From Euryarchaeota archaeon UBA182 (GTDB taxonomy: Archaea; Thermoplasmatota; Poseidoniia; Poseidoniales; Thalassarchaeaceae): a stretch of DNA of 64,000 bases. The number at the start of each line of letters is the position of its first letter. The first letter of the stretch is position 1. The stretch is from assembly GCA_002495675.1 (NCBI GenBank), contig DAGH01000025.1, positions 14,258-78,257 on the forward strand, read 5' to 3'. This document shows, piece by piece, positions 10,897 to 62,437 of this stretch. A program made the position numbers and the translations under genes. The notes below the pieces were generated by a model. It worked only from the letters and a program-made list of their open reading frames with translations. It did not search any database and had not been told where the DNA came from.

Positions 10897-10956
10897 GGGA
10901 CATCTGACCATCATCTTCAACAGCCTAGCCACCACCCGATGGGATGAGGTCCCCTC

Positions 10957-13731: not shown

Positions 13732-14444
13732 TTTCCTTGGCGTTGGTTTCGACCTTGCTGGCAGCGGGATGTCTGGGATCAGACGGAGAACCCGACATCT
13801 TCTACGGTGAGGACATAAATCCCCCGAGGCCCACCGAAGACTTCGTTCTCTTCGACCAAAACGGGGACCCAGTTGCGTTCAACGACTATCTCGGCGACGT
13901 CGTCGTGGTTGCCTTCCTCTTTACAAGGTGCCCTGACGTCTGCCCACAAGTCAGTGCAAACATGGCATGGATAGGGGAAGCGTTGGGAGAAGACCTCGGA
14001 AAGGAGGTGCATCTCCTTTCAATCACGGTCGACCCATGGTACGATAATTCCAGCGTCCTGTGGAACTATGCATACGACAGGGGCCTTGAATGGCCCCACC
14101 TCTCTTCTGAACTGGAAATCATGGAACCTGTCTGGAGATCATTCGAGGTGGGACTTGAGACGTATGCAAATGACTCGGATGGAGATGGGACTGTCGATGG
14201 CTTCGACCTGTGCCCGGACACCCCCGAGGGCGAGCAGACTGACGCCGATGGGTGTGGCGTTGAGACCCAGCAGCCAGAGGATGAGGTCCAAACCATGCAC
14301 CACCCCCTCTACTACATCGATCACACCACTGGCACCATAATTGTGGACAGGCAAGGCTACCAACGAGTGTACTGGGGAGATTTCGTCTGGAATGCGGACA
14401 TGGTCTTGGATGACATCCGGCAACTCATGGAGGAAAACCCTTGA
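13728..14444 (+). CDS. SCO1/SenC-family copper chaperone lipoprotein
   Basis: ATGA overlap with upstream stop. Lipobox LLAAGC. Thioredoxin-like CPDVCP (the SCO1 CxxxC copper site, FTRCPDVCPQ) plus a downstream His. Carries an Asp-rich insert DSDGDGTVDGFDLCPDTPEGEQTDADGCG. Confidence 0.75.
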   Translation: MISLALVSTLLAAGCLGSDGEPDIFYGEDINPPRPTEDFVLFDQNGDPVAFNDYLGDVVVVAFLFTRCPDVCPQVSANMAWIGEALGEDLGKEVHLLSITVDPWYDNSSVLWNYAYDRGLEWPHLSSELEIMEPVWRSFEVGLETYANDSDGDGTVDGFDLCPDTPEGEQTDADGCGVETQQPEDEVQTMHHPLYYIDHTTGTIIVDRQGYQRVYWGDFVWNADMVLDDIRQLMEENP

Positions 14445-15541: not shown

Positions 15542-15581
15542 TCATCTACGATATCGAAGCCCATAGCATCGATGAGATAAA

Positions 15582-31622: not shown

Positions 31623-33248
31623 TCACACGAAAGGAATAGAAGCGACGGCGTGAGTTTCCAGATTTACCACCGTCAGTATACAGGGAAGGGGTTGGAATCC
31701 CAACATTCGCTGGTAGTCGGTTTGATTCTGCCAGGTCGAACTATGGATGATGTGTGTGCCTTTGTACTGGCTGGCATGATGGCCATGGACATGGCCGGTG
31801 ACAAAAATATCCGGAATGGTTTGAATCACCATCGAATCCTCCGGCTCGGGGGACAAAGGCGTCTTGCCTCCCCATGATGGGGCAAGGTGCCTCCTCTCCA
31901 ACATGGCCATCATGGCTCTTTCCGGGTGTTCGAAGCTTACCGACCGTAAGCTCGACACAAAGTCAGATATGCTCACCCCGTGGTACGCGAGCACCCTAAC
32001 ACCATGCAAACTGAAGTCCGATGGGTTACCGGAAAATGTGACGTCAGAGTAGTCCTGTTGAACATCAGGGTCCAAGGCTGGCTGGGGCTCTGCAGGACGG
32101 ACTGCGTCATGATTCCCGGGCATGATGATTGTGTCGACCCAATCTGGCAGCTCCTCGATCATTCGGGCCAATTCACCATACTGTTTGTAGAGGTCGCGGA
32201 TTGAGAGATGTTTTTCCTGCCCCGGGTATATGCCCACGCCATCAACCCCGTCTCCTGTCATCACGAAATACTTGATCGTCCTGGCGAGAGGATCCTCCTT
32301 GAACCACTGGACCATCTTTTTCCATTGGGCATCGAGGAATGTCTTGCTGCCCACATGTATGTCGGACAAGAAGGCGACTGAGATTGCAGCATCACTACCA
32401 GAAGTTGCCTTTTGGTGGGCTCCCAATGATGGGCGATGCAGGTCCGAGGCCCTCAATCGGCCACTCTCAGTGAAGTATCCAGTTACTCCTATGACATCGT
32501 CATCCAGCAACCCATCTGTAACAGGATGTGTCTTTGTCCATTCTGGCTTTGGGTACAATATGCATTCTACAGAGCCAGTTTCGTCCTCTAAAGCAAACTG
32601 TATGTCTCCATTTCTCCCAAACCTCTTGAACTCGACAAGCCCAACTACCGACACTTCCTTCTCGGGCGAATTTCTTGATTTCCTCTCCCTCCACGCATCA
32701 GATATTCGCGATGGCCGTGTCGGCAATGATCCGGAATCCAAGATCATCTTCCTAATCTTCGCCAACCTGTCAGTGAAACAAGACTGCATGTCGGTCAGGC
32801 GGCCTTCAGTGACAGAGTTTCCCGTGATGTCAAAGTGGATATCTATCTCGGGGTCGATGTCAGTTGCATCCATGGGAAAATCCCGGATGGAGTAATGCTC
32901 GAGACCGTGCGGCCTCGGGGCTACTTGTATCCCATTACTTTCCAACGGGGCGAGGACTCTGCCAGAGTTGCCCGCAGATTGCTCATTGGGAGATTTCCCG
33001 ATTCCGTCCCTTTGAAGATCCATCGTTTGAATTTCGCCTGTCTCTGATGGCTCCATGAGCTTAGATCCTGATTGTATCAGGCTCCTGACAGCGGAGTCGT
33101 CTAAGAGCCTGATTGATTTCTCAAGAGCAGCCTTAATGAGTTGGTCTAGGTTGTCAACAGACTCAATCAAGGGGATGGCGGATCGCTTGACTAGGAGGCC
33201 ATGGGAGATTAACTCCCTGCTGAGTCTGGCCCCATCATCCCCGGTCAT
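31623..33248 (-). CDS. DNA polymerase II (PolD) small subunit DP1
   Basis: Archaea-specific calcineurin-like phosphoesterase/exonuclease: VAFLSDIHVGS, YFVMTGDGVDGVG, IIMPGNHDA, GVRVLAYHG, VTGHVHG. 541 aa. Confidence 0.8.
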   Translation of the reverse strand: MTGDDGARLSRELISHGLLVKRSAIPLIESVDNLDQLIKAALEKSIRLLDDSAVRSLIQSGSKLMEPSETGEIQTMDLQRDGIGKSPNEQSAGNSGRVLAPLESNGIQVAPRPHGLEHYSIRDFPMDATDIDPEIDIHFDITGNSVTEGRLTDMQSCFTDRLAKIRKMILDSGSLPTRPSRISDAWRERKSRNSPEKEVSVVGLVEFKRFGRNGDIQFALEDETGSVECILYPKPEWTKTHPVTDGLLDDDVIGVTGYFTESGRLRASDLHRPSLGAHQKATSGSDAAISVAFLSDIHVGSKTFLDAQWKKMVQWFKEDPLARTIKYFVMTGDGVDGVGIYPGQEKHLSIRDLYKQYGELARMIEELPDWVDTIIMPGNHDAVRPAEPQPALDPDVQQDYSDVTFSGNPSDFSLHGVRVLAYHGVSISDFVSSLRSVSFEHPERAMMAMLERRHLAPSWGGKTPLSPEPEDSMVIQTIPDIFVTGHVHGHHASQYKGTHIIHSSTWQNQTDYQRMLGFQPLPCILTVVNLETHAVASIPFV

Positions 33249-39834: not shown

Positions 39835-41391
39835 CTAGTTCACCCATGAGTATCTCCTCTCGCCCTCTAGGTGGCCTTCAGCCCCAATCGAGACGAGGGC
39901 AAACTCCGCTGACGGGCTGATTACAGATGAGTTCCTCGAGCCCCTATGAAGGGCCTCATAGACAGATTTGTCGATTGATTGGCGTTCGTCTATCCTAGCG
40001 AAAAGCGAGAATCTTGAGACAATATGTTTCCAATCCGGCTGGATGATCCCCTCGAACACCTTGGCCTTCGCACCAGAGCCATATCCACAGAGGCCAACAC
40101 GAGTGCCATTCATGTCTTGATTGTCCTCTAAGTCGGATTCCAATGCTGACATCAATGCTAGAAAAATGGATCCAGTGTATTGATTGCCGACCTTAGACGA
40201 AGCGCGTTGTGTCTTTTCGATCCTCTGCTCGACGAATTGCTTGAATTGATCCGTCTTGGAAATCTTCCTTCGATAAACATCGTTAGCAGCCTCGAACTCG
40301 CTTTCTCCTGATTCGCCCTCGGGGTAATCGGGCCTAATTGGTTCTGGGCCTATTTCAGCCTCGATCTCTGACCATGTCGGGAGATGCCGCCTGTCGTGGC
40401 GGAAAACATCCGGGAACATTCGCTTGGCCTGGAAAGCATATGGCAGGTGGACTATGATCCTTGACCATTGCTCTGTGAGGATATCATCATCATTCGGATC
40501 ATACCTTCCATGGGCTATAGCCTTCGACCTGAAGTTGATGAAAGCCTGCTTAACCGACTCCGAATAGCACCTATTCGAGAAGGCACCGTCGAACACTGGG
40601 GTGTCCTTGTGGACCTTCAGGGTCTCGGATTCGAACAAGGTATGGTCCCGCTTGTCTGTCTTGTCGATGATCCTCATGATTCTCTCGGATAGATTTGTCT
40701 TGAATTTCTCCCCAGCATCAGAGGCCAGCTCCAGCACTGTCTCGACTATTGACTTCCTCGTAATTTCCCTGCGAGGCTTGAAGAAATCATGAACGGGCAT
40801 CGTGGATACACCCCATATGTCTGGGATCTCCAGCAACCTTGGGTTGTGCCTGATGAGGATGGCCCCGCCACCCGCACCTTGAGTGTACTCGCCCGATGAG
40901 CCCAGGTCGTACTTTGCATTGTCGGCGAAGACCACGACCCCGATCCTATCCTGCTCCACGCCTCCCCTAGCAACCCAGTCCAGAGTGTTGTGCATCGCAT
41001 CCACGGCCCCGATGCAAGCAAAAGTCATGTCCACGACATCACAATTTCTGAAACATTCCGGACCGTACTTTTTCGAGTAGCGTTGTTCAAGCATGTCCAT
41101 GATGTAAGTGGCAGTGGGCTTCGACCCATCTAAGGCTGATTCAGTGCCAAGATATATCCTACCAATTTTTTTTGGTTCGAGCTTGTTCCTGTCAATTATT
41201 CTAGCAACCGCATTAGCGCCCATGGTCGCGGTGTCCTCATGGACATCTGGGATAGCCATCGCGGATAAGCCAAGACCTCGATTCAGCTTGCCGTAGTCCG
41301 CCCCTCTGAATTCTGCAAAGTCCTTGATGTCGAAATAAAGCCTAGGTATGTGGATCGCGATGTCGTCTATACCCACAGAAACTGTCATCAT
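39835..41391 (-). CDS. hydroxymethylglutaryl-CoA synthase, long form
   Basis: VGIDDIAIHIPRLYF...DYGKLNRGLG...EDTATMGANAV, catalytic Cys context MTFACIGAVDAM, and C-terminal helical extension. 518 aa, considerably longer than the ~350-aa archaeal HMGCS. Confidence 0.8.
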   Translation of the reverse strand: MMTVSVGIDDIAIHIPRLYFDIKDFAEFRGADYGKLNRGLGLSAMAIPDVHEDTATMGANAVARIIDRNKLEPKKIGRIYLGTESALDGSKPTATYIMDMLEQRYSKKYGPECFRNCDVVDMTFACIGAVDAMHNTLDWVARGGVEQDRIGVVVFADNAKYDLGSSGEYTQGAGGGAILIRHNPRLLEIPDIWGVSTMPVHDFFKPRREITRKSIVETVLELASDAGEKFKTNLSERIMRIIDKTDKRDHTLFESETLKVHKDTPVFDGAFSNRCYSESVKQAFINFRSKAIAHGRYDPNDDDILTEQWSRIIVHLPYAFQAKRMFPDVFRHDRRHLPTWSEIEAEIGPEPIRPDYPEGESGESEFEAANDVYRRKISKTDQFKQFVEQRIEKTQRASSKVGNQYTGSIFLALMSALESDLEDNQDMNGTRVGLCGYGSGAKAKVFEGIIQPDWKHIVSRFSLFARIDERQSIDKSVYEALHRGSRNSSVISPSAEFALVSIGAEGHLEGERRYSWVN

Positions 41392-44325: not shown

Positions 44326-44371
44326 ATTGCGAACCTTGAAGGGGCTCGTCCTCAGCGGGTGTACAGATATT

Positions 44372-45544
44372 ATGGGATACGAGGCTCTAGACTTCTACGA
44401 TGTTGACTCTCTGCTCACAGACGAGGAACGGATGATTCGCGACGCAGTGCGGGATTGGGTTGACGAGTCTGTGATACCAAAGATAGAGAATGCCTGTAGG
44501 GAGGGGGTTTTCCTCGATGAATGGCGGCAGGACATCGGGAGCATGGGCATACTTGGGGCCCCGCTCAAAGGATACGGTTGCCCTGGCCTGTCATACACCG
44601 CCTACGGAGTCATTTGCAGGGAATTGGAGCGTGGCGACAGCGGCATCAGATCATTCGCCAGTGTCCAGGGGTCATTGGCCATGTACCCAATCTGGGACTT
44701 CGGTAGTGAGGAACAGAAAGAGAAGTACCTTCCCGGAATGGCGACCGGAGAGCTCATCGGATGCTTCGGGCTGACAGAGCCGGACTATGGATCCAACCCA
44801 GGAGACATGGTCACGAAAGCAACAGAAGACGGTGACGGCTTTGTCCTAAACGGAGCAAAGATGTGGATTACAAACGGAACAATAGCGGATCTTGCCATCG
44901 TATGGGCAAAGCTAGATGGCGTCATCAGAGGTTTCATCGTTGAGAAGGGAGACCCTGGTTTCTCTGCCCCGGAGATGAAAGGCAAACATTCTCTCAAGGC
45001 AAGCGTCACCTCTGAATTGGTTTTCCAGGATTGTCGCATACCAAAAGATCGCATACTACCGGGGGTAAAGGGCCTAAGAGGGCCATTCTCATGTCTCAAC
45101 AATGCGAGATTCGGGATCTCTTGGGGTGCCATCGGATCGGCTCAGGCATGCTACGATTCGGCCAAAAGCTATGCCCTGAGCAGAATTCAGTTCGACCACC
45201 CAATCGCTGCATACCAACTCGTCCAGAACAAACTTGCATGGATGCTCCGCGAGATAACCAAGGGACAACTGCTGGCTTACCACCTCGGCAAGAAGAAAGA
45301 CGCGGGTGAGTGGATACCCGAACACATATCACTTGCGAAAATGAACAACGTCGACATAGCATTGGAGATAGCAAGGGTGTCACGGGACATTCATGGCGCG
45401 AATGGAATTCTGGACGAGTACCCGGTGATGCGGCATATGGCCAATCTTGAGTCGGTGAAGACCTATGAGGGCACCCATGACATACACAACCTGATTCTAG
45501 GTCGTCACATTACAGGCATACAAGCCTTCACGAAAGGAGCATGA
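44372..45544 (+). CDS. glutaryl-CoA dehydrogenase-like acyl-CoA dehydrogenase
   Basis: GCFGLTEPDYGSNPGDM, LNGAKMWITNG, and C-terminal ILDEYPVMRHMANLESVKTYEGTHDIHNLILGR (GCDH-typical YEGTHDIH). Start trimmed to ATG 44372. Confidence 0.85.
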   Translation: MGYEALDFYDVDSLLTDEERMIRDAVRDWVDESVIPKIENACREGVFLDEWRQDIGSMGILGAPLKGYGCPGLSYTAYGVICRELERGDSGIRSFASVQGSLAMYPIWDFGSEEQKEKYLPGMATGELIGCFGLTEPDYGSNPGDMVTKATEDGDGFVLNGAKMWITNGTIADLAIVWAKLDGVIRGFIVEKGDPGFSAPEMKGKHSLKASVTSELVFQDCRIPKDRILPGVKGLRGPFSCLNNARFGISWGAIGSAQACYDSAKSYALSRIQFDHPIAAYQLVQNKLAWMLREITKGQLLAYHLGKKKDAGEWIPEHISLAKMNNVDIALEIARVSRDIHGANGILDEYPVMRHMANLESVKTYEGTHDIHNLILGRHITGIQAFTKGA

Positions 45545-45595
45545 TGGCTCCGTTGACTTCATAGGACTGCCTTGGTGTGAGAGATACGTGATAGC

Positions 45596-46351
45596 ATGAA
45601 GGTAGCCGTACTCATCAAACAGGTCCCCGACACGACAGCCAAAGTCGGCATCACCAGCGGCAGCGTGGATGAGGGTGCCATATCCAAATGGTCGATTAGC
45701 CCCTACGACGAATACGCCTTGGAATCAGCATTGAGCCTGCAGAGCGGCTCTGGGGCAACAGTGGTTGCGATAACCCTCGGGCCCGAGAGGTCCTCGAAAT
45801 CCCTAATCGATGCTGCAGCGGTGGGCGCTGACGAGCTACTGCACGTCGTTCACGATGGGGGCCTTGGCTCGCTGTCGCTCCAAAAGGCACTCTCAGAGGC
45901 GGTGACCAGAGTTGGGGCAGAGGTCGTGCTTGTCGGAAAACAGGCAGCGGACACCAACTCAGGTTCAACTGGACCGGGAGTCGCTAAGATGCTGAACTAC
46001 TCATGTGTCGGTTTGGTATCAAGAATCGAAGCTGGCTCCGATGGCTTTGAAGCCACTAGGTCCACACCCTCAGGAATGGAACGAGTCTCCGTAAAATTAC
46101 CCTGCGTCTTTGCATTCGACAAGGGGGATGTGGAACTGCGAAGGCCAAACGTCAGAGGGATAATGATGGCCAAGAAAAAGCCAATAGAGAAGATATCCCT
46201 CGCGGACCTCGGTGTGGACAACACAGGCGAAGGTGTTTCCACAACTTCGGTGGATTACCCCCCAGAGAAGCCCGAGGGCCAGAGATTCGAGGGTGCCGAT
46301 GCCGCTGCCGAAGTCGCAGTCAAGCTCAGGGAAGAGGCCAACGTCATCTAA
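45596..46351 (+). CDS. etfB: electron transfer flavoprotein beta subunit
   Basis: MKVAVLIKQVPDT..., ISPYDEYALESAL, VLVGKQAADTNSG are EtfB signatures. 251 aa. Confidence 0.9.
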   Translation: MKVAVLIKQVPDTTAKVGITSGSVDEGAISKWSISPYDEYALESALSLQSGSGATVVAITLGPERSSKSLIDAAAVGADELLHVVHDGGLGSLSLQKALSEAVTRVGAEVVLVGKQAADTNSGSTGPGVAKMLNYSCVGLVSRIEAGSDGFEATRSTPSGMERVSVKLPCVFAFDKGDVELRRPNVRGIMMAKKKPIEKISLADLGVDNTGEGVSTTSVDYPPEKPEGQRFEGADAAAEVAVKLREEANVI

Positions 46352-46363
46352 GGAGGAATTTGA

Positions 46364-47281
46364 ATGAGTACCACCATAATCGCAGAACAGCAAGAAGAAG
46401 GGATACATCCAACGTTGCCCCAGTTGGTGCACGCGGCCTCTATAATTGGCGGCGAATGCACCATAATAATTCCCGGTGGTGGCGGAGAGTCTGAAGCCTC
46501 TGAGATAGTAGGAGTTGACAGGGTACTGAAGTTCAACGGAAGCTGCTTCTCTGTTTTCGACTCCCAGTCTTGGTCGAGCGCACTGAAGGGATCCGTGGGT
46601 GGGACCGTCCTTCTGGCATCAACCCCCCGGGGCCGCGAGCTCGGGGCTAGTCTTGCTGCTGACATCGGCATCTCGGTCGTTCAGGACATAACATCGATTT
46701 CGGAAGGTATCAACGTAGAGAGGCCGGTCTTTTCAGGCAAGGCGATAGAGAAAGTCACCATCTCTAGTCCTGCCGTAATTACCATCCGCCCCAACTCGCT
46801 GGATCCAGCGGGGAATGGAGCCTCAGCCCCGGTATCGACGATCGATTCGGGTGAAGATCTCAGAATGGCGGTAGAAGAGGCGATAACCAAGGCTAGCGAG
46901 AAGATCGATGTCTCAGAGGCGGACATCATAATTTCCGGCGGGAGAGGTTTGGGAGATATCTCGAACTTCGAAAAGTTGGAGGAAGTCGCTTCGACTCTCG
47001 GTGCTGCAGTGGGGGCTAGTAGGGCCGTCGTGGATGAGTGGGGCCTCCCCCACAGTATGCAGGTTGGCCAGACTGGAAAGACCGTAACACCGTCCCTCTA
47101 CATCGCGGTGGGGATATCTGGTGCAATACAGCATTTGGCTGGAATGAGATCCAGCAGTTACATTGTCGCCATAAACAAGGACCCCGAAGCTCCAATTTTC
47201 ACCGTTGCCGACTACGGAATCGTAGCCTCCTGGGAAGATGCCCTCCCGGTTCTGCACGACTCCATCAAGGCGCTTCCGTGA
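46364..47281 (+). CDS. etfA: electron transfer flavoprotein alpha subunit
   Basis: IISGGRGLG...ASRAVVDEWGLPHSMQVGQTGKTVTPSLYIAVGISGAIQHLAGM...VAINKDPEAPIF is the conserved EtfA FAD-binding C-terminal domain. Confidence 0.9.
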   Translation: MSTTIIAEQQEEGIHPTLPQLVHAASIIGGECTIIIPGGGGESEASEIVGVDRVLKFNGSCFSVFDSQSWSSALKGSVGGTVLLASTPRGRELGASLAADIGISVVQDITSISEGINVERPVFSGKAIEKVTISSPAVITIRPNSLDPAGNGASAPVSTIDSGEDLRMAVEEAITKASEKIDVSEADIIISGGRGLGDISNFEKLEEVASTLGAAVGASRAVVDEWGLPHSMQVGQTGKTVTPSLYIAVGISGAIQHLAGMRSSSYIVAINKDPEAPIFTVADYGIVASWEDALPVLHDSIKALP

Positions 47282-47879
47282 TTAAACGGGCAATAGAAAC
47301 AAGGTGGTAGACTCCTCCAACGAGCCTCTGCTCGAAATCCACTTTCCATGACTCTCCCCTGAGTTTCCATACCCCTCTTGAATAGGAAATTTCCCTGGAT
47401 ATTGAAAGGCCATATCCTGTGGCCTTAGATACAGCCTCAATGGCCATCCAAGTCTCCAGATTCGTGGGATATGGGGTTTGTTTCTTTACATCTTCTGTTG
47501 CAATCTGATCCAAGGTTCCCATATCGACAAGTCTGGACTTGGGCTCCATATCCACCCCTATTGGATATGGTCCGGTCGATTTGACTGCCACGGCACCATG
47601 ATCTGTGTGGGATATGCTCCAATGGTTCAACAGAGTTCCATTTCTGGTGTGGCAACCGCCCTTTCCAGGCTCAATGTTGGCAACATCGCCTTGGATGGCA
47701 CCTAGAAGGTTCCCTAGGGCGATCCTCCCCGAAATATGGTGTTTTTTCCTATCTCCCCTCATCCTACGGAACCTATCTTCTTCCACTAGGATCGGCAAAG
47801 TTCCTTGGCTTGAAAGGTCGTCATGGTCGACGTATTCTGCCAGAAACCCGTCAATTGACATATTCTGATTTTGAATCAT
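47265..47879 (-). CDS. 4'-phosphopantetheinyl transferase (Sfp/EntD superfamily)
   Basis: GRIALGNLLG, WSISHTDHGAVAV, PIGVDMEP (GxDxE) and WMAIEAVSKATG (W..KEA-like). ATGA overlap with the upstream PKS stop. Confidence 0.75.
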   Translation of the reverse strand: MIQNQNMSIDGFLAEYVDHDDLSSQGTLPILVEEDRFRRMRGDRKKHHISGRIALGNLLGAIQGDVANIEPGKGGCHTRNGTLLNHWSISHTDHGAVAVKSTGPYPIGVDMEPKSRLVDMGTLDQIATEDVKKQTPYPTNLETWMAIEAVSKATGYGLSISREISYSRGVWKLRGESWKVDFEQRLVGGVYHLVSIARLITEAP

Positions 47880-50800
47880 GTCAATTCTCCGGAATACTCT
47901 GCCAGGCCGGGACGTTGATCATCGCTCAAGTCTCTGAGTTTTTTCATTTTGAGCCCGTCGATCCTCATAATCGGGGAGCCATCCAGTCTGATTACGGACT
48001 CATGCACGAAGGTACCGTTGGGATCGGATCCCTTCCTAACCGAAGTTACGGTCAAGGAACCCTCGGGAATTTCACCTGCGATTAGAATACGCTTGGCTCC
48101 GACAGGGAGGGATTCCGCCGAATCCAGATCCATCGATGTGAGCCCTGCTGCCTGGAAGCAGGACTCGATCAACATGGGATAGGACGTCAAATCGGGGATG
48201 ATTCCTTTTCCTCGAATATTGAATAGTCGAGGATCCGGAAGATCCTGTATGGAGTTCACCCTGGCCTCGATGCCAGTGCCTGAAGTGGTTTCGATGGTCG
48301 CGACGACTCCCTTTAGTGGTTGGAACCTAGGGCCATGGAACATCAAGCCATAGATGTCCACAGCACCGAGAATCCGTGATCCGTCCTCGTCGGTGGTTAT
48401 CAGATCGTCAATTTTCTCCTGCGGATTCTTTGAGGCAAGAGCGATTATCGCCGTGTGATGCACAATGGGTTCTGCCATACCACCGGGGGCTTCCGAGACT
48501 ATCCTGCAACTGTATGCCTCGGCCCAGTCTCCCTCGATTGCCTCCACTATGCAACGAATCTCTTTGTGGGACTTTGTCAACTTAACTGGCAGGCCAAATT
48601 CAACGTCTTCGAATGAGGATATTCTGTTTCCACTGGTGATGCAAGATTGAACTGTCTCCGCCATCATCTCCAATGCCATGACCCCGGGTAGGTACGGTAC
48701 GCCTGAAATCGAATGATCCATGAGGTAACTGTGTGATTCAAGATCTAATCTGACTGCAGAAACAGCGCCCTTCCCGTGTTCACAGTATGTGATCACATCA
48801 ATCATTGGATGCCTTGAGGCTGTGCCGTACTCACTGGAGAAACCCGGAGGGAGCACGACGCCTGCCATCCTAACGGACTTGTTCTGGTCGAGAATTCCGA
48901 GATTTCCTGAGATCAGGACTGATTCACCTCCTTGGGTGAGAACCTCGTCCGTAAACATCCTAGCACCAGTCTCCAGGGGTATCATGTCCACCTCGGCCAT
49001 TTGGAAAACTGTCTCCAAGGAACCCCTAGTTGCCATCCCTGCGCCTGACCATGGAGCCCACGCAATCGAGATCGACGTGAGGCCACCCTTGTTGATTCTC
49101 GAGTGCTCAGCGTCCAGTATTCTATTTGCGGCACAGTATCCGAGTTGGGTGGCGTTCCCAAGCCTGCCGGAGACCGATGTGAAAGAGCAGGCAAATCTCA
49201 GGTCTTGATTTGCTTCTTTGAGGGAATTGTAAATTTCCCTCCACCCTGACACCTTTACGTCGAGGACCTGATTGACTGTTGCCTCAGATTTTGACTCAAA
49301 GGGAGTCGAGTCCTCGATCCCCGCTCCATGAATTACTCCTGTGATTCTGCCGTGTTTTGAAATTACTTCATCGACAACGGCTCTGACCCTCTCGCTGGAC
49401 GTCACATCTACCTGGAAATACTCTGCCGTGGCTCCTTTGGAGTTGAGTCTGGCGAGGTTTTTGTGTATGTCCACGCCACGCAATACTTTCTGCCAAGCGT
49501 CATTCCACTCTCTCAGGGTGACTTTGCCATCGTCCCTGCCGGACTCCATAGCCAACTTTAGCTTCAGTTTCTCATTCTCGAGATCCTGATCGGACATGGC
49601 AGACATTTTTTCCAACTTGGGGTCGAGTGTTGTTCGGCCGAGTAGTATGAACGTGGGAGGGCCCGATGGGCTCCTACCAGCGATATCCACCATGCATTCC
49701 GAGGTCACACCCGATGCTCCACCACTGACCAGCCATATCTCGTCTCCGGGAAATTCCCCGGCCATCTCCTGTGCCTCTGCTCTCTTGAGGGTCAGCCTAT
49801 GCCTAGCACCGCCGTCGCCTATGCCGACTTCTATCGGGCCATCTTTCCTTGAAATCTCTTTCATTATCGAGGTTATGAGGGTATCCTCATCGTCCATGAG
49901 CCCTGGATGTATGTCAATGGCGAGGACGTCCAATTCCGGCCTCTCGCAGCCGAAGCTCATGACTGCCCCGTGGATTCCAGCGACGGATGAATTGTAATCA
50001 CCCCCCTCAATACCATGGGAGCCGTCCATCGAGGTCACCGTTGCTATCCTTCGAACGGCCCCCCTTGGAAGGCTGTCTACTTTCTTCAACAGGTTGTAGG
50101 TCTCAATCGTCCAGTGATTTGGAGACGGATCGGTGTAGAGAGATCCCTCAGCCCCGAGGGAGGACATTTGTACAATGCAGGCGTCTCGAATTTCCTCGTC
50201 TGATAGGCTATCCTCCTCGATGATCCGCGCTTCGCCCCCCATTCTGGTTATTCGTGCAACCAACGAATCTGAGAGTCCAAGTGGGTCTCTTGTGACCAAT
50301 ACCAATCGTGGGAGCTGGTGGATTTCGATATCTCCCATCGCCTCTGTGACAACCACATGTCTGAATATCGGTGCGGGTGGATTTTCCTCTTCCTGGGGTT
50401 CTCTTGATTCTCCACTCTTTGGCGGTGAGTCTGTCGATCCTGCGACATAGTTTGCTACGTGCCCCAGCGTCGGGTAATCCCTGATCTGGAAGTCCTCATC
50501 CAATTCTAAGTTGAATTGTGCCCTGATGTCAGACATTATCTCCGCCTGTTTGATCGAGTCTATTCCGAGCTCGCCCTCCATGTCTGCGTCGGTCTCAAGG
50601 AATTCAACGGGGTATCCCGTGTGTTGTGCTACGATCGGGAGTATCGATGAGAGGATTTCGTCATTAGGGGCTCCATACTCGACCTGGGGTTGCATCTCCA
50701 TCTTCTTGCCCTCCGACTCTCCCGCTGATTGGTCGAACTCTTCCAACGGCCTCCTGCTTTCGTTCGAATCGGTGAATGAGCCGATGTATCTGATCACGTG

Positions 50801-53800
50801 GCCGATCGTTGGGTGGTCCCTGAGTTGGAAACTCTCATCGAGCGGGAGCGAGTATCGATCACGGATCTCAGACATTATCTCCGCCTGTTTAATCGAGTCA
50901 ATTCCGAGTTCGCCCTCCATGTCCGCGTCGAACTCGATGAATTCCTCTGGGTAGCCAGTCGATTCAGAGACTATCTCAAGCACCCCCCTACTGACGTCAT
51001 CAGTGGAAATTAATGGGGGTGAGGGAGTTGGCCTAGTCGGTTTCTCAGGGCTAATTGCCCCATTCTTTTCCACTGGAATTGATCCTGTTGAGTCGTTGGG
51101 GAGGGTTTGAGCGTGATCCTTCAAAGGGGCAGTTGACTTCATCCTCGGCGGATCATACAACTCTCCGACGACCCCCCCGACCAGATCATCGTCAGCATCG
51201 ACGTAGGCAACGAGCTTCCGGTGCAATACCCTCAGGCTAACATCTTTACCCCTGCTGGCCCTCAAAGCCCATTGAGTTATCCTGTCGGGGTCGAATCTCT
51301 CTGTGTCTGATACCGCGATCTTCCTCAGGAATGTCAGGGCAATCTGGCTACCGAAACCTGCACCGTGCCTGAGGGCGAGATCGATATCCTTCGGCCCTCC
51401 CTTCGATATATTGAGGGTGCCGAGGTCTTCGTCTTCAACCTCGTAGTTCGCGACCGGCGGGAAGATTCCCGCAGCAAGGCTCCTGATTACCACAGCGTCC
51501 TCCAATCCCACGCCCATTGGATGGCCAGTGTACCCCTTCGCGTTCGTAATGAGGATCTCCTGGGCCTTGTTCCCGAAGACGTGGCGGAGAGCGCTGACTT
51601 CTGCTGATGCAGAACCGCCCCGAGGCGGGGTATAGGGCTCATGTGACATGAATGTCATTCTATCGGCCATCTCACTTCTGCCGATCTTCCATTTGCGTTC
51701 CATGCGACCAACGAATGACTCCATGACCGAGGCTGCATGGTCCGTGTCGAGCCTCGTTGGGTGGAATGCGCTGTTGGCGATCTCCGCGCCGAGGACCTCG
51801 ACATATGGGGTGACTCCCCGCTCTCTGGCGTCTCCCTGCCTCTCGAGTACGAAGCCCGCGCCCCCCATTCCTAGAAGCATCCCGTGTCTACGTGCATCGA
51901 AAGGCAGGGCGACCTGCGTGACATCGTCGCCCATCGCATGGGCTCCTGCCCCAGAGAAACCAGCACCTACCCAGGGCATCAGGGTGTCGGATGTCGAGTC
52001 GTCACCACTGACGATAATTACTCTATCACATCTTCCTCTTGCCATCCAGTCCTCTGCTATTGCAAATGCGGCCGGGGTAGAGGCGCAGGCGTTGTTGATC
52101 GCGAGATTTGGCCCTCTGGCCCCTATCCATGAAGCAAATTGACTATGCCCCATTGATAGGACCTGGAGCAGGTACTTCCTGTCGAATTGATCATATTCTG
52201 GCGATTTCCTGCGTAGTACGTGTTCTATCGCCTTCTCCAACCCTGGGAATACGGAGGCGAAGATCACGCCTGTTCTGTCCTTTTCATGCTCGGGAAGGTT
52301 CCACCCCCGGATGACACGCAGGCCACTGCTGTTGGACTGTTCTACTGGCAATAATGGTAATCCTGCGTCCTTGAGGGCCTCCAAGCCAGAGGCAAATGCC
52401 AATGAGGTCGCAATGTCGAAAGCCTCGACCAGTTTCTTGTCGATCCCATATTGCTCCGTAAGGTCAAACCTTCCACCGATTCCTGCCAATTGTGGAACTT
52501 TCTCGAAAGCATCAGCAGGCACCAGCCTGGATGTTCCATCCTCACTCTTAACCAATCGAACGATTTTTTGGTCTACGAGTTTCTGTTTCATATCATTGGA
52601 AATCTCAGAGATGAGGTTCCTGCCCTCCAAGATGGCCTCCCAAACACCGTCATCGAAAACTTCGTCCATGCCAGGAACCCCGAGTGAAATCCCGCTTACG
52701 ACAGGAGGCTCTGGGTTCGCATCGGGGGTATTGGAGCGATTTTCAGGTTCGATTGAGATTGCCTGTACTATGTCTGCGACAGTAGAGAATGAGCCGGGGC
52801 CTGATATGGAAACTAGGTCTGGATGGCCTACCTCATCGAGAACGTACCGTATTCTTGATTCGTCGACTCCTATCTCGTCAAGGCTGACGTTTCCAGTCAA
52901 GACGGAGCTTGGATAACCTGTTATTTTGGCCAATATGTCTGAGACAATCCTCTCTGATTGGATCGACTCGGGCATGGGGCGAACAAGGCGAGTATTTCCA
53001 TGGGGGCTCGCAGGGGAGGGGTTCGACGGCAATGGTCTTGATCTCGTTCTGAGTGCCTCGAGATTCTCAGAAACAGAGGCGAGATCGGTGTCGTTTGGGG
53101 GTTCCATAAACTCAGGTGAGAGCAGCCCTTTGCCCCATTCATCGATAATCGGCATCTTCCCATTGATCGCCAGAAACGCGATTGAATCGAGGAAAGTGGC
53201 AATGCCGCCGACTTTGGGGTGATTTGTTGATGATGTCTTCGCGTCGCCCCCAAGAATGGCAGCAACGGTTGAAGACAGAGCTCGTTTAGGGCCCACTTCG
53301 AGGAAGATACGGGCTCCTGCACCATACATCGTCTCGACTTGATCGATCCAGTTGACGGGCGATGACATCTGTGGAGCCAACTTTTCCAGTATCGATTCCC
53401 TCGGGTTGTCAGAATGCATGGGATAGAATGAGCCATCGACGTTCGCAGTGACCGGGATTGTCGGTAGGGAGATGTCGATTGATTCTAGGAATCGACGAAG
53501 AGGGGCATTGGCCGGCGAAACAATGTCTGTGTGGAATGCATGGCTCGTCTGAAGTGGGATCACAGTGGCTCCCAGATCCGATAAAATGTGAATCGCGGAT
53601 TGTACTGCATCGGTCTCGCCGGCAATGACCGTCGAGACAGGACTGTTCCTGTTCGCCGCGATGACATAACCATCTACCGACCGAAGCGCCTCCTCGACCT
53701 TACTGGCTGGGGCTCCAACCGCGGCCATGAGGCCCTTGTCAGGTACCTCCACGGAGCCCATCTCAGTTCCACGGGCTGCCGCAGCGCTCATTGCATCTCT

Positions 53801-56002
53801 GAAACTGAGGATGCCCGAGACCATCAGTGCTGCGTATTCGCCAAGGCTGTGTCCTGCGACCATATCAGGGAAGATTTCATGATCAGCCAAGAGACGGTCA
53901 ATGGCTAGGTCCGCAGTTAGCATGGCCGGTTGTGTGAACTCTGTTTGGGTTAGCCTGGATTGAGCCTCTTCCATATCTGCTCCAATGAGATTGTTGTTCA
54001 GTACAATTCCAGACAAAGGCTCTCCAATGATCGGAGTCATGATGCCGTCGGCCTCCCTCCAGGTGGATGCCACAACATGGTACCTCTGTGCCAGATCAAG
54101 AGTCATGCCGAGGTATTGGCTGCCTTGGCCGGGGTACATGTGTGCTAATTTGGCGTTGGGGTCCAGAGGTGCATCTTCGATGTGTATCTGTTGACTTTTT
54201 AGGAATGAGTGCCTCCCCGAATCGGTAATTCCTTCCATAGCCAAGGCTATTCTCTTCTCTAATTGGGGCCAACTGGTCGCAACTATGGAGAGCCTGATAC
54301 CCTCGGGTTTGAAACCCAAGGAGGACAGGGGGAGGGCCCTTGAGAGTCTCTTTCCAGTGGGGTGGTCATCGAAGGTCGGGGTTCCGTCGAACAGTTCTTC
54401 GGAGATTTCACCTAGTCTCTCGAGGAGCGCTTCCTCGGAGTTCCCGTTGACGAGTAATACTCCGCCTTCTAATGCCTTGAGGTGCGCCCAACTGAGTGAT
54501 GTCGGTCGATGGGCATCGCCTCCCTCTCTATGGTGGTGTCTTCTCGACCTCCACTTTGCTGAGAGTTTCGAGTGTTTTTCGGGATGGTATTGCTCGAGGG
54601 CGACGTGGAAATTCGTACCCCCGAATCCAAACGCGCTCACCCCTGCTCTGCGTGGATTGTCAGTTGGCTGGGGCCAATCCCCTGCCACAGTGGGGACATA
54701 GAATGGTACCTCCGACCATGGGACGGTTTCATTCGGCTGTTCAAATCCTGCCGAGGGCGGTATCGTTCGATGATGAAGGGACAACGCTACTTTGAGTATG
54801 CCCGCCAAACCTGCAGCAGCCTTCAGGTGCCCAATCTGTGACTTAATTGACCCCACGGCAACGGTCCCTGGCATGTTGGACTGGCCATACACGGAGGATA
54901 GTGACGCCAACTCGGTGGCATCACCGACGGATGTGCTGGTTCCATGGGCCTCTATCAGTTCCACGCTGGATACAGGATACCCTGCTTGACTGTATGCATT
55001 TGAGATTGCTAGGACCTGTCCGCCTTGACTTGGTGCGGTAATCCCCTTTCCACGGCCATCGCTGCTGGCGCCTATCCCTCTGATCACGGAGTATACCTTG
55101 TCGCCTGCCTTGATAGCATCATTCAGTCTCTTCAAGACCAACGCACCTGCGCCCTCCCCCATAACGAAGCCATCGGCTCTCCGGTCAAATGGCACCGACC
55201 TTGTCGCTGATAATGCCCCAATCGCGCTGAATTTCGCAAAAGTAGCAGGGTCCATTGTTCGATCTGCGGCTCCTGCCACCATGACGTCTACTTGGCCACT
55301 GTGTAGCAGGTGACAGGCATCCATGACGGCTGCCATCGCCGAGGCGCAGGCGGCGTCAGTGGTGAAATTAGGGCCCCTTAGGTCTAGCATGTTCGCTACC
55401 CTCCCAGCCACAACGTTGGCTAGCTCGCCGGGCATGGTGTCCTCGTCTACCCTTGGTGCCCCATCAAGCAATGAAGTCTTGAACCTAGAAAAGGCGTCAT
55501 CTGATATTCCGGCTTCCTTTGCGTGCCTTTGGTACCTGTCGATCAGCACCCTCTCTGTTGACCGTGTTCGGTTCTCGCCCCCCAGCGCATTTGCGAAGAC
55601 GACTCCAGTCTTCTCTCTAGGTAAATTCGAAGTAGCGCCATCACCGAGGTATCCAGCATCCTCCAACGCAGCGGCGGACACACTCACGGCCCATTGTTGA
55701 CAAAGGTCGATCTGCGGCAGGGATCCAGGGGGTATCCTCCATCTCTTCCAGTCAAACTCGTATTCGTCAACCCAAGCTCCAATCTTGCTGTAGGTCTTGC
55801 CCTCGGAGATGTTCTTTGGTCCACCTGCCTCCCAGTGATCTCCTGACCTCCAACGATCTTTTGGGAGATTTCGTATTGATACTTCGCCCGAGATCACATT
55901 CTTCCAGAAGGTAGAGACGTCTGGCGCGTCTGGCAGGATTGCTCCGAGCCCGACAATCGCAATCGGCTCGAAAGTTCCAATTTCATCTTTGGAATTGGCC
56001 AT
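47876..56002 (-). CDS. type I polyketide / PUFA-synthase-like secondary-lipid synthase: KS - malonyl-AT - (degenerate ACP-like) - FabF-like KS - ACP - ACP - KR - PKS-type DH
   Basis: Uninterrupted 2708-aa ORF with six motif sets. KS1: DAACASAMAAV (Cys), EAHGTSTSVGD, GSIKSQIGH. AT: YPGQGSQYLGM, VAGHSLGEYAAL, QTSHAFHT. KS2: AINNACAST, NSAFHPTRLD, KGYTGHPMGVGLEDAV. Two ACPs with ELGIDSIKQAEIMS. KR: WLVSGGASGVTSEC Rossmann and YCAANRILD. DH: HSYLMDHSISGVPYLPG. Confidence 0.9.
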   Translation of the reverse strand: MANSKDEIGTFEPIAIVGLGAILPDAPDVSTFWKNVISGEVSIRNLPKDRWRSGDHWEAGGPKNISEGKTYSKIGAWVDEYEFDWKRWRIPPGSLPQIDLCQQWAVSVSAAALEDAGYLGDGATSNLPREKTGVVFANALGGENRTRSTERVLIDRYQRHAKEAGISDDAFSRFKTSLLDGAPRVDEDTMPGELANVVAGRVANMLDLRGPNFTTDAACASAMAAVMDACHLLHSGQVDVMVAGAADRTMDPATFAKFSAIGALSATRSVPFDRRADGFVMGEGAGALVLKRLNDAIKAGDKVYSVIRGIGASSDGRGKGITAPSQGGQVLAISNAYSQAGYPVSSVELIEAHGTSTSVGDATELASLSSVYGQSNMPGTVAVGSIKSQIGHLKAAAGLAGILKVALSLHHRTIPPSAGFEQPNETVPWSEVPFYVPTVAGDWPQPTDNPRRAGVSAFGFGGTNFHVALEQYHPEKHSKLSAKWRSRRHHHREGGDAHRPTSLSWAHLKALEGGVLLVNGNSEEALLERLGEISEELFDGTPTFDDHPTGKRLSRALPLSSLGFKPEGIRLSIVATSWPQLEKRIALAMEGITDSGRHSFLKSQQIHIEDAPLDPNAKLAHMYPGQGSQYLGMTLDLAQRYHVVASTWREADGIMTPIIGEPLSGIVLNNNLIGADMEEAQSRLTQTEFTQPAMLTADLAIDRLLADHEIFPDMVAGHSLGEYAALMVSGILSFRDAMSAAAARGTEMGSVEVPDKGLMAAVGAPASKVEEALRSVDGYVIAANRNSPVSTVIAGETDAVQSAIHILSDLGATVIPLQTSHAFHTDIVSPANAPLRRFLESIDISLPTIPVTANVDGSFYPMHSDNPRESILEKLAPQMSSPVNWIDQVETMYGAGARIFLEVGPKRALSSTVAAILGGDAKTSSTNHPKVGGIATFLDSIAFLAINGKMPIIDEWGKGLLSPEFMEPPNDTDLASVSENLEALRTRSRPLPSNPSPASPHGNTRLVRPMPESIQSERIVSDILAKITGYPSSVLTGNVSLDEIGVDESRIRYVLDEVGHPDLVSISGPGSFSTVADIVQAISIEPENRSNTPDANPEPPVVSGISLGVPGMDEVFDDGVWEAILEGRNLISEISNDMKQKLVDQKIVRLVKSEDGTSRLVPADAFEKVPQLAGIGGRFDLTEQYGIDKKLVEAFDIATSLAFASGLEALKDAGLPLLPVEQSNSSGLRVIRGWNLPEHEKDRTGVIFASVFPGLEKAIEHVLRRKSPEYDQFDRKYLLQVLSMGHSQFASWIGARGPNLAINNACASTPAAFAIAEDWMARGRCDRVIIVSGDDSTSDTLMPWVGAGFSGAGAHAMGDDVTQVALPFDARRHGMLLGMGGAGFVLERQGDARERGVTPYVEVLGAEIANSAFHPTRLDTDHAASVMESFVGRMERKWKIGRSEMADRMTFMSHEPYTPPRGGSASAEVSALRHVFGNKAQEILITNAKGYTGHPMGVGLEDAVVIRSLAAGIFPPVANYEVEDEDLGTLNISKGGPKDIDLALRHGAGFGSQIALTFLRKIAVSDTERFDPDRITQWALRASRGKDVSLRVLHRKLVAYVDADDDLVGGVVGELYDPPRMKSTAPLKDHAQTLPNDSTGSIPVEKNGAISPEKPTRPTPSPPLISTDDVSRGVLEIVSESTGYPEEFIEFDADMEGELGIDSIKQAEIMSEIRDRYSLPLDESFQLRDHPTIGHVIRYIGSFTDSNESRRPLEEFDQSAGESEGKKMEMQPQVEYGAPNDEILSSILPIVAQHTGYPVEFLETDADMEGELGIDSIKQAEIMSDIRAQFNLELDEDFQIRDYPTLGHVANYVAGSTDSPPKSGESREPQEEENPPAPIFRHVVVTEAMGDIEIHQLPRLVLVTRDPLGLSDSLVARITRMGGEARIIEEDSLSDEEIRDACIVQMSSLGAEGSLYTDPSPNHWTIETYNLLKKVDSLPRGAVRRIATVTSMDGSHGIEGGDYNSSVAGIHGAVMSFGCERPELDVLAIDIHPGLMDDEDTLITSIMKEISRKDGPIEVGIGDGGARHRLTLKRAEAQEMAGEFPGDEIWLVSGGASGVTSECMVDIAGRSPSGPPTFILLGRTTLDPKLEKMSAMSDQDLENEKLKLKLAMESGRDDGKVTLREWNDAWQKVLRGVDIHKNLARLNSKGATAEYFQVDVTSSERVRAVVDEVISKHGRITGVIHGAGIEDSTPFESKSEATVNQVLDVKVSGWREIYNSLKEANQDLRFACSFTSVSGRLGNATQLGYCAANRILDAEHSRINKGGLTSISIAWAPWSGAGMATRGSLETVFQMAEVDMIPLETGARMFTDEVLTQGGESVLISGNLGILDQNKSVRMAGVVLPPGFSSEYGTASRHPMIDVITYCEHGKGAVSAVRLDLESHSYLMDHSISGVPYLPGVMALEMMAETVQSCITSGNRISSFEDVEFGLPVKLTKSHKEIRCIVEAIEGDWAEAYSCRIVSEAPGGMAEPIVHHTAIIALASKNPQEKIDDLITTDEDGSRILGAVDIYGLMFHGPRFQPLKGVVATIETTSGTGIEARVNSIQDLPDPRLFNIRGKGIIPDLTSYPMLIESCFQAAGLTSMDLDSAESLPVGAKRILIAGEIPEGSLTVTSVRKGSDPNGTFVHESVIRLDGSPIMRIDGLKMKKLRDLSDDQRPGLAEYSGELT
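50438..51010 (-). repeat. intragenic tandem duplication (~345-bp period) encoding the two ACP domains
   Basis: Plus-strand segments near 50523-50600 and 50868-50945 are almost identical (tcagacattatctccgcctgttt[g/a]atcgagtc[t/a]attccgag[c/t]tcgccctccatgtc[t/c]gcgtcg...). They translate to the repeated EGELGIDSIKQAEIMS[ED]IR blocks. Confidence 0.8.
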
Positions 56003-61464: not shown

Positions 61465-61638
61465 ATGTCAGGATCGGACTTTCTGAAGGTGAGCTGCAAG
61501 GACTGCGGGAACGAAACGATAATCTTCAGCAGAGCTTCGTCTGAAGTCTCCTGCTCCGTCTGCGGAAGTACGCTTGCTAAACCCAAGGGCGGGAAGGCAG
61601 ACCTGGTGGGGAGCACGATCGTCGAAGTCCTCGAGTGA
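61465..61638 (+). CDS. rps27e: 30S ribosomal protein S27e
   Basis: 57 aa MSGSDFLKVSCKDCGNETIIFSRASSEVSCSVCGSTLAKPKGGKADLVGSTIVEVLE with the C4 zinc ribbon. Not in the ORF track (<60 aa). Confidence 0.85.
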   Translation: MSGSDFLKVSCKDCGNETIIFSRASSEVSCSVCGSTLAKPKGGKADLVGSTIVEVLE

Positions 61639-61651
61639 AGGGGGGCGAATC

Positions 61652-62437
61652 TTGGCAAGAAAACAAACATGGCCAGAAGAAGGCGACCTGCTCGTCTGCA
61701 TCGTAAAGTCAGTCAGCGACAAGGGGGCCTACCTGGAGATAGATGGCCTGGATGGGGTCGAGGGCTTCGTCTTCATCGGCGAGGTCGCCGCAGGATGGGT
61801 CAAATCTGTAAGATCTCACCTCAGGGAGGGGCAGAGAGTCGTAGCCAAGGCCATTGGGGTCAAACAGGACCGAGGAAGGATTGACCTCTCCATCAAATCA
61901 GTCTCTGACGAAAGGCGTCGGGATGCTCTCCAGTTCTGGAAGAACGAGCAACGAGCTGGGCAGATCATGAAGGTGGCGGCCGAGAGGGTCAAATGGAGCG
62001 ATGACGAGCTTGATTCCAAGTCTGACGACCTCGTTGACGCCTTCGGCTCCTTGTATGGCGCCCTGGAAGAGGCTGCCGGCGACCCAGATTCCCTCTCCAA
62101 TGCCGGCTTCTCAGGTGATTGGACCACCACCATCGTGGAACTAGCCGTTGAGAACATCGTCCCCGAGTCGGTGAAACTCAAGGGCAGCTTCCACATAGAG
62201 ATCTGGTCCAGCGAGGGGGTTGCGGGGATCATGAAAGTCCTGGAGAAAGCCGAGGAAAGCGCCAGTTCAGCTGATGAAGTGACACTCACATGCCACTACG
62301 ACGGGGCCCCGAATTATCGAGTCGAGATCGAAGGCCCCGACTACAACTCTGCTGAATCAGCCTGGGAGGCTTGCGTCAAGGCGGCCGAGTCTGAGATGGC
62401 GGCCTTTGACGGGAAATTCGCTGCTGATAGGGTCTGA
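61652..62437 (+). CDS. eif2a: translation initiation factor 2 alpha subunit (aIF2-alpha)
   Basis: PEEGDLLVCIVKSVSDKGAYLEIDG...EGFVFIGEVAAGWVKSVRSHLREGQRVVAKAIGVKQDRGRIDLSIKSV is the S1-domain N-terminus of aIF2-alpha. Proposed TTG start at 61652, preceded by GGGGGG 7-12 nt upstream. The ATG at 61574 would overlap rps27e by 65 nt. Confidence 0.85.
   Translation: MARKQTWPEEGDLLVCIVKSVSDKGAYLEIDGLDGVEGFVFIGEVAAGWVKSVRSHLREGQRVVAKAIGVKQDRGRIDLSIKSVSDERRRDALQFWKNEQRAGQIMKVAAERVKWSDDELDSKSDDLVDAFGSLYGALEEAAGDPDSLSNAGFSGDWTTTIVELAVENIVPESVKLKGSFHIEIWSSEGVAGIMKVLEKAEESASSADEVTLTCHYDGAPNYRVEIEGPDYNSAESAWEACVKAAESEMAAFDGKFAADRV

Follow-up and report, generated by a model that had tools for sequence, protein, structure and literature searches.

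The closest described relative of the system considered here is the Type R secondary lipid synthase, which was defined in Koribacter, Solibacter, Elusimicrobium, and Roseiflexus (Shulse & Allen 2011, PLoS One, PMC3098273). As published, Type R consists of a single pfaA homologue with the domain order ketosynthase (KS), malonyl acyltransferase (MAT), chain length factor (CLF), three to six tandem acyl carrier proteins (ACPs), and ketoreductase (KR), and a phosphopantetheinyl transferase (PPTase) gene lies downstream; in Koribacter, an acetyl-CoA carboxylase (ACC) gene stands between the synthase and the PPTase (PMC3098273). The DNA analysed in this study, hereafter the window, is a stretch of 64,000 nucleotides of contig DAGH01000025.1 from Euryarchaeota archaeon UBA182, a member of Marine Group II (MGII), and it encodes a large multidomain megasynthase between a fabI gene and a PPTase gene. 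Similar to the published system, the megasynthase is a single pfaA homologue whose domains run KS-MAT-(KS-like)-ACPn-KR, its PPTase gene follows directly, and no pfaB, pfaC, or pfaD was found in the window. Relatives from Acidobacteriota and Chloroflexota share the architecture, several of them with ACC between the synthase and the PPTase, as in Koribacter, and the identity of the second ketosynthase (KS2) among the aligned members, including metagenome-assembled genomes of these two phyla, was 46–54%. Because the published description of Type R agrees with the present findings in its phyla, its architecture, its PPTase, and its association with ACC, we infer from that description that the window protein is an archaeal member of Type R. 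When homologues were searched with an acidobacterial KS2, mostly fragments were obtained, and the named Type R genomes were not among the matches. An earlier prediction, made from the letters of this stretch and referred to below as the original prediction, had considered the domain order non-canonical. The architecture is no singular oddity, as it was catalogued in 2011 as Type R (PMC3098273) and is widespread and uncharacterised; the archaeal member is what is new.

The window protein also departs from the published Type R in several respects. It carries two ACPs rather than three to six, with one to four among the MGII members. Its host is archaeal, and fabI is part of its operon, whereas many bacterial loci have an upstream acyl-CoA dehydrogenase (ACAD) gene. 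Moreover, the ACP ahead of KS2 has degenerated in the window protein, and the remaining ACPs use Ser, while most of the family uses Thr. Finally, the domain published as a CLF keeps Cys-His-His-Lys in the window family, and the CLF of Type R is therefore predicted to be a FabF-like KS. In searches of the open-access literature, no dissection of this protein was found, nor was any match for KS-AT-KS strings or for the LGIDTVK motif. On a type I synthase in MGII, these searches yielded only generic statements and antiSMASH class labels; in one survey, since retracted, the classes "T1PKS, HglE-KS" were given for Poseidoniaceae clusters.

The megasynthase is encoded by a single unbroken open reading frame (ORF) of 2708 codons plus the stop. 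Parsing of the whole protein and of its sub-segments with Pfam and NCBIfam bore out the predicted order and supplied the boundaries, namely, KS1, acyltransferase (AT), an ACP-like segment, KS2, ACP, ACP, KR, and dehydratase (DH) (Table 1). The HAFH motif of the AT was taken, from established polyketide synthase (PKS) knowledge, to confer malonyl specificity. The N-terminal part of the KR (aa 1880–2180, approximately 300 residues) gave no Pfam match, is conserved across the synthase family, and is probably a structural subdomain. In the DH, residues H2430, G2434, and P2439 were invariant or almost so in the family alignment. No thioesterase (TE), enoyl reductase (ER), or other release domain was found in the megasynthase by domain parsing. 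The absence of a release domain, as originally predicted, was thus reproduced, but not its unusualness, because the lack of a TE is ordinary in PfaA-like and type II fatty acid synthase (FAS) systems. The GC content of the gene (0.53–0.55) was similar to that of its surroundings. Full-length homologues of the megasynthase were found at 98% identity and at 45–76% identity.

The three genes are tightly packed. The stop codon of fabI, the upstream gene, lies 7 nt ahead of the megasynthase ATG, and the ATG of the PPTase gene overlaps the megasynthase TGA (ATGA). In the case of fabI, the twelve best NCBIfam matches of the product were all FabI, and the short-chain dehydrogenase/reductase (SDR) fold with Tyr-x6-Lys was present (motif Y..SY-GLMSIA-K). 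The PPTase ORF gave no Pfam match; it was identified by comparison with its syntenic counterpart in a second MGII locus, L001, which is a PF01648 (ACPS) protein (30% identity, E-value of 4e-8, PPTase motifs aligned). This translationally coupled gene had been overlooked in the original prediction. The order fabI-megasynthase-PPTase was kept in all five MGII loci compared, which span MGIIa and MGIIb, namely, the window, L001 (megasynthase gene at 10001–18790), L082, L083, and L084. This conserved, tightly spaced operon supports the earlier proposal that FabI would serve as the ER in trans. No second KS gene, PfaC, or PfaD-like/nitronate monooxygenase (NMO) gene was found in the window. The window is archaeal, with genes for eIF-2 alpha (61574–62437), the small subunit of DNA polymerase D (31623–33248), and HMG-CoA synthase, and the NCBI names attached to the megasynthase homologues were Candidatus Poseidoniales, Thalassarchaeaceae, Poseidoniaceae, and Marine Group II. 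The archaeal nature of the host had not been recognised in the original prediction. A scan for bacterial-type promoters and terminators gave nothing over the shuffled expectation, the models being bacterial and not applicable to archaea.

The relationships and catalytic residues of the two ketosynthases were compared. KS1 and KS2 shared 30% identity over 196 aa. A recent duplication of KS1 as the source of KS2 was rejected from this value and from their different closest solved relatives. The best solved relatives of KS1-AT were KS-AT didomains of type I PKSs, such as CurL, DEBS, and MAS; the catalytic residues of KS1 were invariant in the family alignment, and the usual gate Phe (F458) is retained. 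In contrast, the fabF model TIGR03150 matched KS2 over nearly its whole length (positions 18–400 of 407; E 4e-37, 127.8 bits). The KS2 family profile matched free-standing FabF best among the PDB entries (130 bits), followed by KasA, mitochondrial KS, and actinorhodin KS-alpha, and no type I PKS KS appeared among its top 60 PDB matches. In a residue-level alignment to FabF structures, C1306, H1454, K1489, and H1494 of KS2 were in register with FabF. The Cys, both His, and the Lys were kept in 235 of 235 non-redundant family domains from several bacterial and archaeal phyla, which indicates strong purifying selection on catalysis. Because this Cys-His-His-Lys set is conserved, KS2 is judged, on sequence grounds, to be a complete FabF-type KS and not a chain length factor; in a CLF, the active-site Cys is lost, usually to Gln. 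The claim of an intact triad in KS2 was therefore upheld in substance, although one residue had been misassigned. The His of the "AFHPTR" motif (H1414) had been named as catalytic, but it aligns with the non-catalytic "DAFHMT" of FabF. H1414 was rejected, as the His of FabF "AHGTSTP" lies opposite H1454 (SHEPYTPP), the true first His.

KS2 also differs from FabF/KAS II. It is embedded in a megasynthase, has inserts in its N-terminal half, and scored under the FabF equivalog cutoff (127.8 vs 493.75 bits). The gate Phe of FabF/FabB, which is the first Phe of the C-terminal FGFGG (F400 in E. coli), was replaced by Ala in all 231 KS2 domains covering the position; in the window, the codons for A1548–F1550 lie at 51353–51361. 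Likewise, the motif around the first catalytic His reads SHE(T/P)YTP(A/P)RGGSA throughout the family, not HGTGT. An AlphaFold2 (AF2) model of KS2, built from an alignment of five sequences, had a pLDDT of 40.8, too low to be of use. Taken together, KS2 represents a separate FabF-like clade that has been conserved over deep divergence and in which parts of the active-site environment are atypical, and both KS1 and KS2 are apparently catalytically competent. The original prediction had treated two KSs in one iterative system as an oddity. However, two active KSs are the norm in PUFA (polyunsaturated fatty acid) synthases, where the KS of PfaA works alongside that of PfaC.

The segment between the AT and KS2 (aa ~990–1095) gave no Pfam match, and it was examined by profile and structure comparison. 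A profile of aa 1006–1084 built from 13 homologues matched the true ACPs of the family with an hhalign probability of 96.4% (E 1.3e-9), and E1048 was aligned opposite their phosphopantetheine Ser/Thr. The AF2 model of the segment was a four-helix bundle with a pLDDT of 84.8, and each of the best 50 Foldseek matches in the PDB was a carrier protein, either acyl or peptidyl (TM ~0.6–0.7). The suggestion that residues 1010–1060 belong to an ACP four-helix bundle was borne out by these results. Accordingly, aa 1012–1090 is an ACP homologue, which has the four-helix fold but lacks the conserved Ser at the start of helix II. Over the 120 MGII clusters, the Ser position was variable (D, P, E, S, A, G, and others), and several bacterial relatives have one or two ordinary ACPs at the same place between the AT and KS2. 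We read the Ser-less domain as a relic of a once-functional ACP that now probably acts as a structural linker. In members with a nearby Ser or Thr, a carrier function of the pre-KS2 segment is possible.

The distribution of the architecture was determined using two scans. In the first, 1.8 billion representatives were scanned with KS2 by HMMER at E<=1e-30, and 515 representatives were obtained. The best 150 of these matches lay almost all within proteins of 2000–4000 aa, and when the window domains were mapped onto them, more than 100 showed KS1-AT-KS2-ACPn-KR-DH; the survey of homologues proposed earlier thus recovered the same order repeatedly. In the second, two KS2 signature peptides were searched against one genome per GTDB species, which yielded at least 599 stretches, 598 of them confirmed. 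The best 80 signature stretches came from Myxococcota/Bradymonadia, Acidobacteriota, Chloroflexota (Anaerolineae), Actinomycetota (Acidimicrobiia and others), KSB1, Thermoplasmatota, and Heimdallarchaeota, and the source names of further relatives included Asgard, Thermoplasmatota, Polyangiaceae, and more Actinomycetota. The two-KS architecture is therefore present in at least several hundred species and is not a one-off.

The genes accompanying these relatives were also compared. The PPTase either has its own gene, immediately after that of the megasynthase, or is joined to the megasynthase C-terminus; such fusions were seen in several relatives, including non-MGII Thermoplasmatota, and some Chloroflexota and Bradymonadia members have ACPs between KS1 and the AT (observed over loci L009, L023, L051, L053, L056, L057, L067, and L002–L006). 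Among the 51 related loci with enough flank, 36 had an ACAD-family gene (median 558 aa), for example L012 (1–6916), L014, L016, L024, L025, and L040. In almost every case, this gene immediately preceded the synthase in the same orientation, with a median gap of 55 bp. In the bacterial members examined, the ACAD had a C-terminal extension. In Acidobacteriota, genes for WS/DGAT, a membrane Fe-S/CCG oxidoreductase, and the electron transfer flavoprotein (ETF) subunits EtfB and EtfA stand ahead of the ACAD. ACC genes followed the synthase in 13 loci, and a PfaD-type ER was present in 6 loci. The cluster ACAD may stand in for FabI or PfaD as an enoyl reductase or a desaturase linked to ETF; of the two trans partners, PfaD-like and ACAD, only the former is a known ER type. 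Judging from the PfaD-type ER, the MGII fabI, and possibly the ACAD, the reductase of these systems would act in trans. Because the relatives pair the megasynthase with PfaD-like or ACAD proteins, ACC, and WS/DGAT, a reduced fatty-acyl product was argued for, and the surrounding lipid genes (ACC and WS/DGAT) fit such a product.

A further observation concerned the carrier domains. The phosphopantetheine Ser is replaced by Thr (LGIDTVK or LGVDTVK) in 572 of 658 family ACP domains, and 125 of the 131 representatives outside the MGII list have Thr in all ACPs (for example, P0028, P0030, P0117, P0126, and P0143). The window megasynthase and its close MGIIb relatives have Ser in the motif (LGIDSIK). 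In alignment with ACPs of solved structure (PigH and an ACP of S. coelicolor), the family Thr falls on their attachment Ser. As the family almost always carries its own PPTase, this suggests that the PPTase may accept Thr. To our knowledge, there is no precedent for Thr at the phosphopantetheine site.

Considering these results, the window operon is regarded, with moderate confidence, as the MGII version of a Type R PfaA-like synthase, that is, an iterative, ACP-dependent, type I FAS-like system in the arrangement fabI-megasynthase-PPTase. The downstream PPTase would convert both ACPs (S1703 and S1816) to the holo form, and the malonyl-specific AT would load malonyl units. KS1, of the type I PKS/PfaA-like kind, and the FabF-like KS2 would both run decarboxylative Claisen condensations on the shared tandem ACPs and would split the rounds by chain length, as the KSs of PfaA and PfaC do in PUFA synthases; Hayashi et al. 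are said to have reported in 2019 that those two share the rounds. As a guess, KS1 would prime the chain and perform the early rounds, and KS2 the later long-chain rounds. The KR and the PKS-type DH would process each beta-keto intermediate, and reduction of the enoyl-ACP would fall to the free-standing FabI, acting in trans, so that most acyl chains would be saturated. Release would proceed without a thioesterase, the acyl chain being taken from the ACP by acyltransferases or moved to CoA by the AT. Within this scheme, the data directly support the domain identities, the conservation of the catalytic residues, the operon structure, and the family distribution.

Several points weigh against this interpretation. 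The FabI of the operon scored under the NCBIfam equivalog cutoffs (214.6 vs 441). With Ala at the gate Phe position and HEPYTPP in place of HGTGT, the chemistry of KS2 could differ from that of a standard elongating KS. The product of Type R was listed as unknown by Shulse & Allen (PMC3098273), and lipid surveys of MGII-rich waters identified no MGII-specific lipid (PMC6962369). Moreover, in three MGII loci (L082–L084), an ABC exporter (ABC_membrane + ABC_tran), a small gene, and a family 2 glycosyltransferase (GT2) are encoded downstream of the operon, a few genes away, which also fits an exported glycolipid and could hint at one.

It is possible, though less likely, that the megasynthase is a specialised (secondary) lipid synthase and not the fatty acid source of the cell. 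In that case, its product would be an uncommon acyl chain, either long, hydroxylated, or partly unsaturated, destined for a glycolipid, wax, or hydrocarbon, like the heterocyst glycolipid (HGL) or other pfa-like clusters. The classification of Type R as a "secondary lipid" synthase (PMC3098273) agrees with this, as do the T1PKS/HglE-KS labels of the retracted paper, the exporter and GT2 of L082–L084, the WS/DGAT gene adjoining bacterial members, and the tandem ACPs, which are typical of PUFA and HGL synthases. However, the megasynthase and its fabI and PPTase partners occur throughout MGIIa and MGIIb, which is suggestive of a core function; the window has neither the exporter nor the GT2 near its operon; and the operon has no FabA-type DH/isomerase, tailoring, or reductive-release genes.

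A role of KS2 as a non-condensing partner is improbable. Under this alternative, KS2 would be CLF-like or structural, and an intramolecular KS1/KS2 pseudo-heterodimer would only shape the acyl pocket. Two thiolase-fold KS-type units in one iterative system recall the KS-CLF of PfaC and the KS-alpha/KS-beta of type II PKSs, although here the AT stands between the two units, which are not adjacent. Since thiolase-fold KSs are established to be obligate dimers, a KS1/KS2 pair in cis is geometrically attractive. The "CLF" label of PMC3098273, the Ala at the gate position, and the atypical motif of the first His also accord with it. However, the Cys, both His, and the Lys of KS2 persist without exception over very deep divergence, whereas a CLF is defined by the loss of the Cys, and the closest matches of the family profile are active FabF enzymes.

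It is very unlikely that the megasynthase is a PUFA synthase subunit, that is, a true PfaA orthologue with its partners encoded elsewhere. PfaA (TIGR02813) was the best whole-protein NCBIfam match, and the order from KS-MAT through tandem ACPs and KR to a PKS-type DH, the iterative mode, the dedicated PPTase, and the lack of a TE are shared with it. However, the score of 796.5 bits was under the cutoff of 1010.1, and the order is interrupted by an extra FabF-like KS and a pseudo-ACP between the MAT and the ACPs, so the earlier statement that the protein matches neither PfaA nor PfaC was supported. PfaB, PfaC, and PfaD partners were found neither in the window nor within 6–10 kb of the megasynthase in the four other MGII loci. 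In addition, the partner ER is FabI, an SDR, and not the FMN-dependent PfaD, and the system lacks a FabA-type isomerising DH and thus a route to methylene-interrupted cis double bonds. The weakest alternative, a frameshift or assembly artefact fusing two genes near 52.7–52.9 kb, has a negligible probability and was ruled out, with nothing found in its favour, because the uninterrupted architecture, KS1-AT-(pseudoACP)-KS2-ACP(1–4)-KR-DH in 120 of 120 MGII protein clusters, is also found in >100 clusters at 50% identity and recurs in independent assemblies from dozens of genomes and many phyla, and the junction itself is a conserved ACP-fold domain.

Table 1. Features of the fabI-megasynthase-PPTase operon in the window and, in the last row, of a region in three other MGII loci (coordinates of those loci).
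Feature	Position	Strand	Evidence
fabI, enoyl-ACP reductase, 267 aa	56010..56813	-	PF13561 E 5.6e-62, 209.8 bits
Megasynthase, 2708 aa, KS1-AT-pseudoACP-KS2-ACP-ACP-KR-DH	47876..56002	-	Pfam and NCBIfam parsing, whole protein and sub-segments
KS1, aa 12-480, type I PKS/PfaA-type; C219, H353, K387, H392, gate F458	54563..55969	-	PF00109, PF02801, PF16197
Malonyl-CoA:ACP acyltransferase, aa 618-918; GHSLGE at 717 (S719), HAFH 821-824	53249..54151	-	PF00698 E 7e-35; fabD TIGR00128 E 5.9e-57
Degenerate ACP-fold domain, aa 1012-1090; E1048 at phosphopantetheine-Ser position	52733..52969	-	hhalign, AF2, Foldseek
KS2, aa ~1098-1565, FabF-like; C1306, H1454, K1489, H1494; Ala1548 at FabF gate Phe	51308..52711	-	fabF TIGR03150, FabF alignment
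ACP1, aa 1668-1745, LGIDS motif, S1703	50768..51001	-	PF00550
ACP2, aa 1781-1858, LGIDS motif, S1816	50429..50662	-	PF00550, second stretch
KR with N-terminal subdomain, aa 1880-2345; Y2289	48968..50365	-	PF08659 over aa 2180-2319
PKS-type double-hotdog dehydratase, aa 2398-2692; H2430 in HxxxGxxxxP	47927..48811	-	PF21089, PF14765
4'-Phosphopantetheinyl transferase, 204 aa	47265..47879	-	Homology to syntenic PF01648 protein of L001
Exporter-GT2 region	L082 17361-20643; L083 17511-20742; L084 11851-15597		

Other genes of the window were recorded as well. The genes for an ACAD, EtfB, and EtfA at 44327–47281 (forward strand) are convergent to the PPTase gene and abut it. A functional link to the megasynthase was suspected from the ACAD genes of the related loci, but it was rejected for the window, as the ACADs there showed 28–31% identity to the ACAD of the bacterial clusters and lacked the C-terminal extension. 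The trio is not next to the operon in the four other MGII loci, and it probably represents beta-oxidation genes placed there by chance. A 518-aa hydroxymethylglutaryl-CoA (HMG-CoA) synthase of the isoprenoid lipid pathway is encoded at 39835–41391 (reverse strand), approximately 6.5 kb from the fatty-acid-type operon, and both lipid chemistries are therefore encoded on one archaeal contig. A heme-precursor cluster at 1239–5379 (reverse strand) contains genes for 5-aminolevulinate (ALA) dehydratase, a 566-aa protein with domains of both porphobilinogen deaminase and uroporphyrinogen-III synthase, and a protein resembling glutamyl-tRNA reductase. Three ORFs gave no Pfam match at E<=1e-4, namely, 10957–12897 (forward, 646 aa), 24392–26137 (reverse, 581 aa), and 26199–28811 (reverse, 870 aa).

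MGII are the most abundant archaea in surface oceans and are uncultured; they lack glycerol-1-phosphate (G1P) dehydrogenase, carry bacterial-like fatty acid and PlsC genes, and have been suspected of bacterial-type or mixed lipids (PMC6461757, PMC6962369, PMC7852524). The enzyme that makes MGII acyl chains has so far not been pinned down, and the compact three-gene operon offers a concrete, clonable candidate. It is tentatively suggested that fabI-megasynthase-PPTase is the sole, primary fatty acid synthase of MGII, and possibly of some Asgard archaea, that it is of bacterial origin, and that it feeds PlsC/PlsY-type acyltransferases. If this is true, the operon would provide the enzymes for the long-postulated "mixed" membranes bridging the lipid divide, and it would work by a mechanism not yet described, in which a single polypeptide contains two active ketosynthases that differ in ancestry. 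The interest of the system lies in its MGII host and the lipid divide, in the sequence evidence that both KSs are catalytic, and in the Thr site and the ACAD/ETF partners of the family as testable oddities. In the case of Type R, which occurs across bacteria and archaea without a known product, the second KS, hitherto labelled a CLF, looks catalytically intact, and this changes how the machine is to be modelled.

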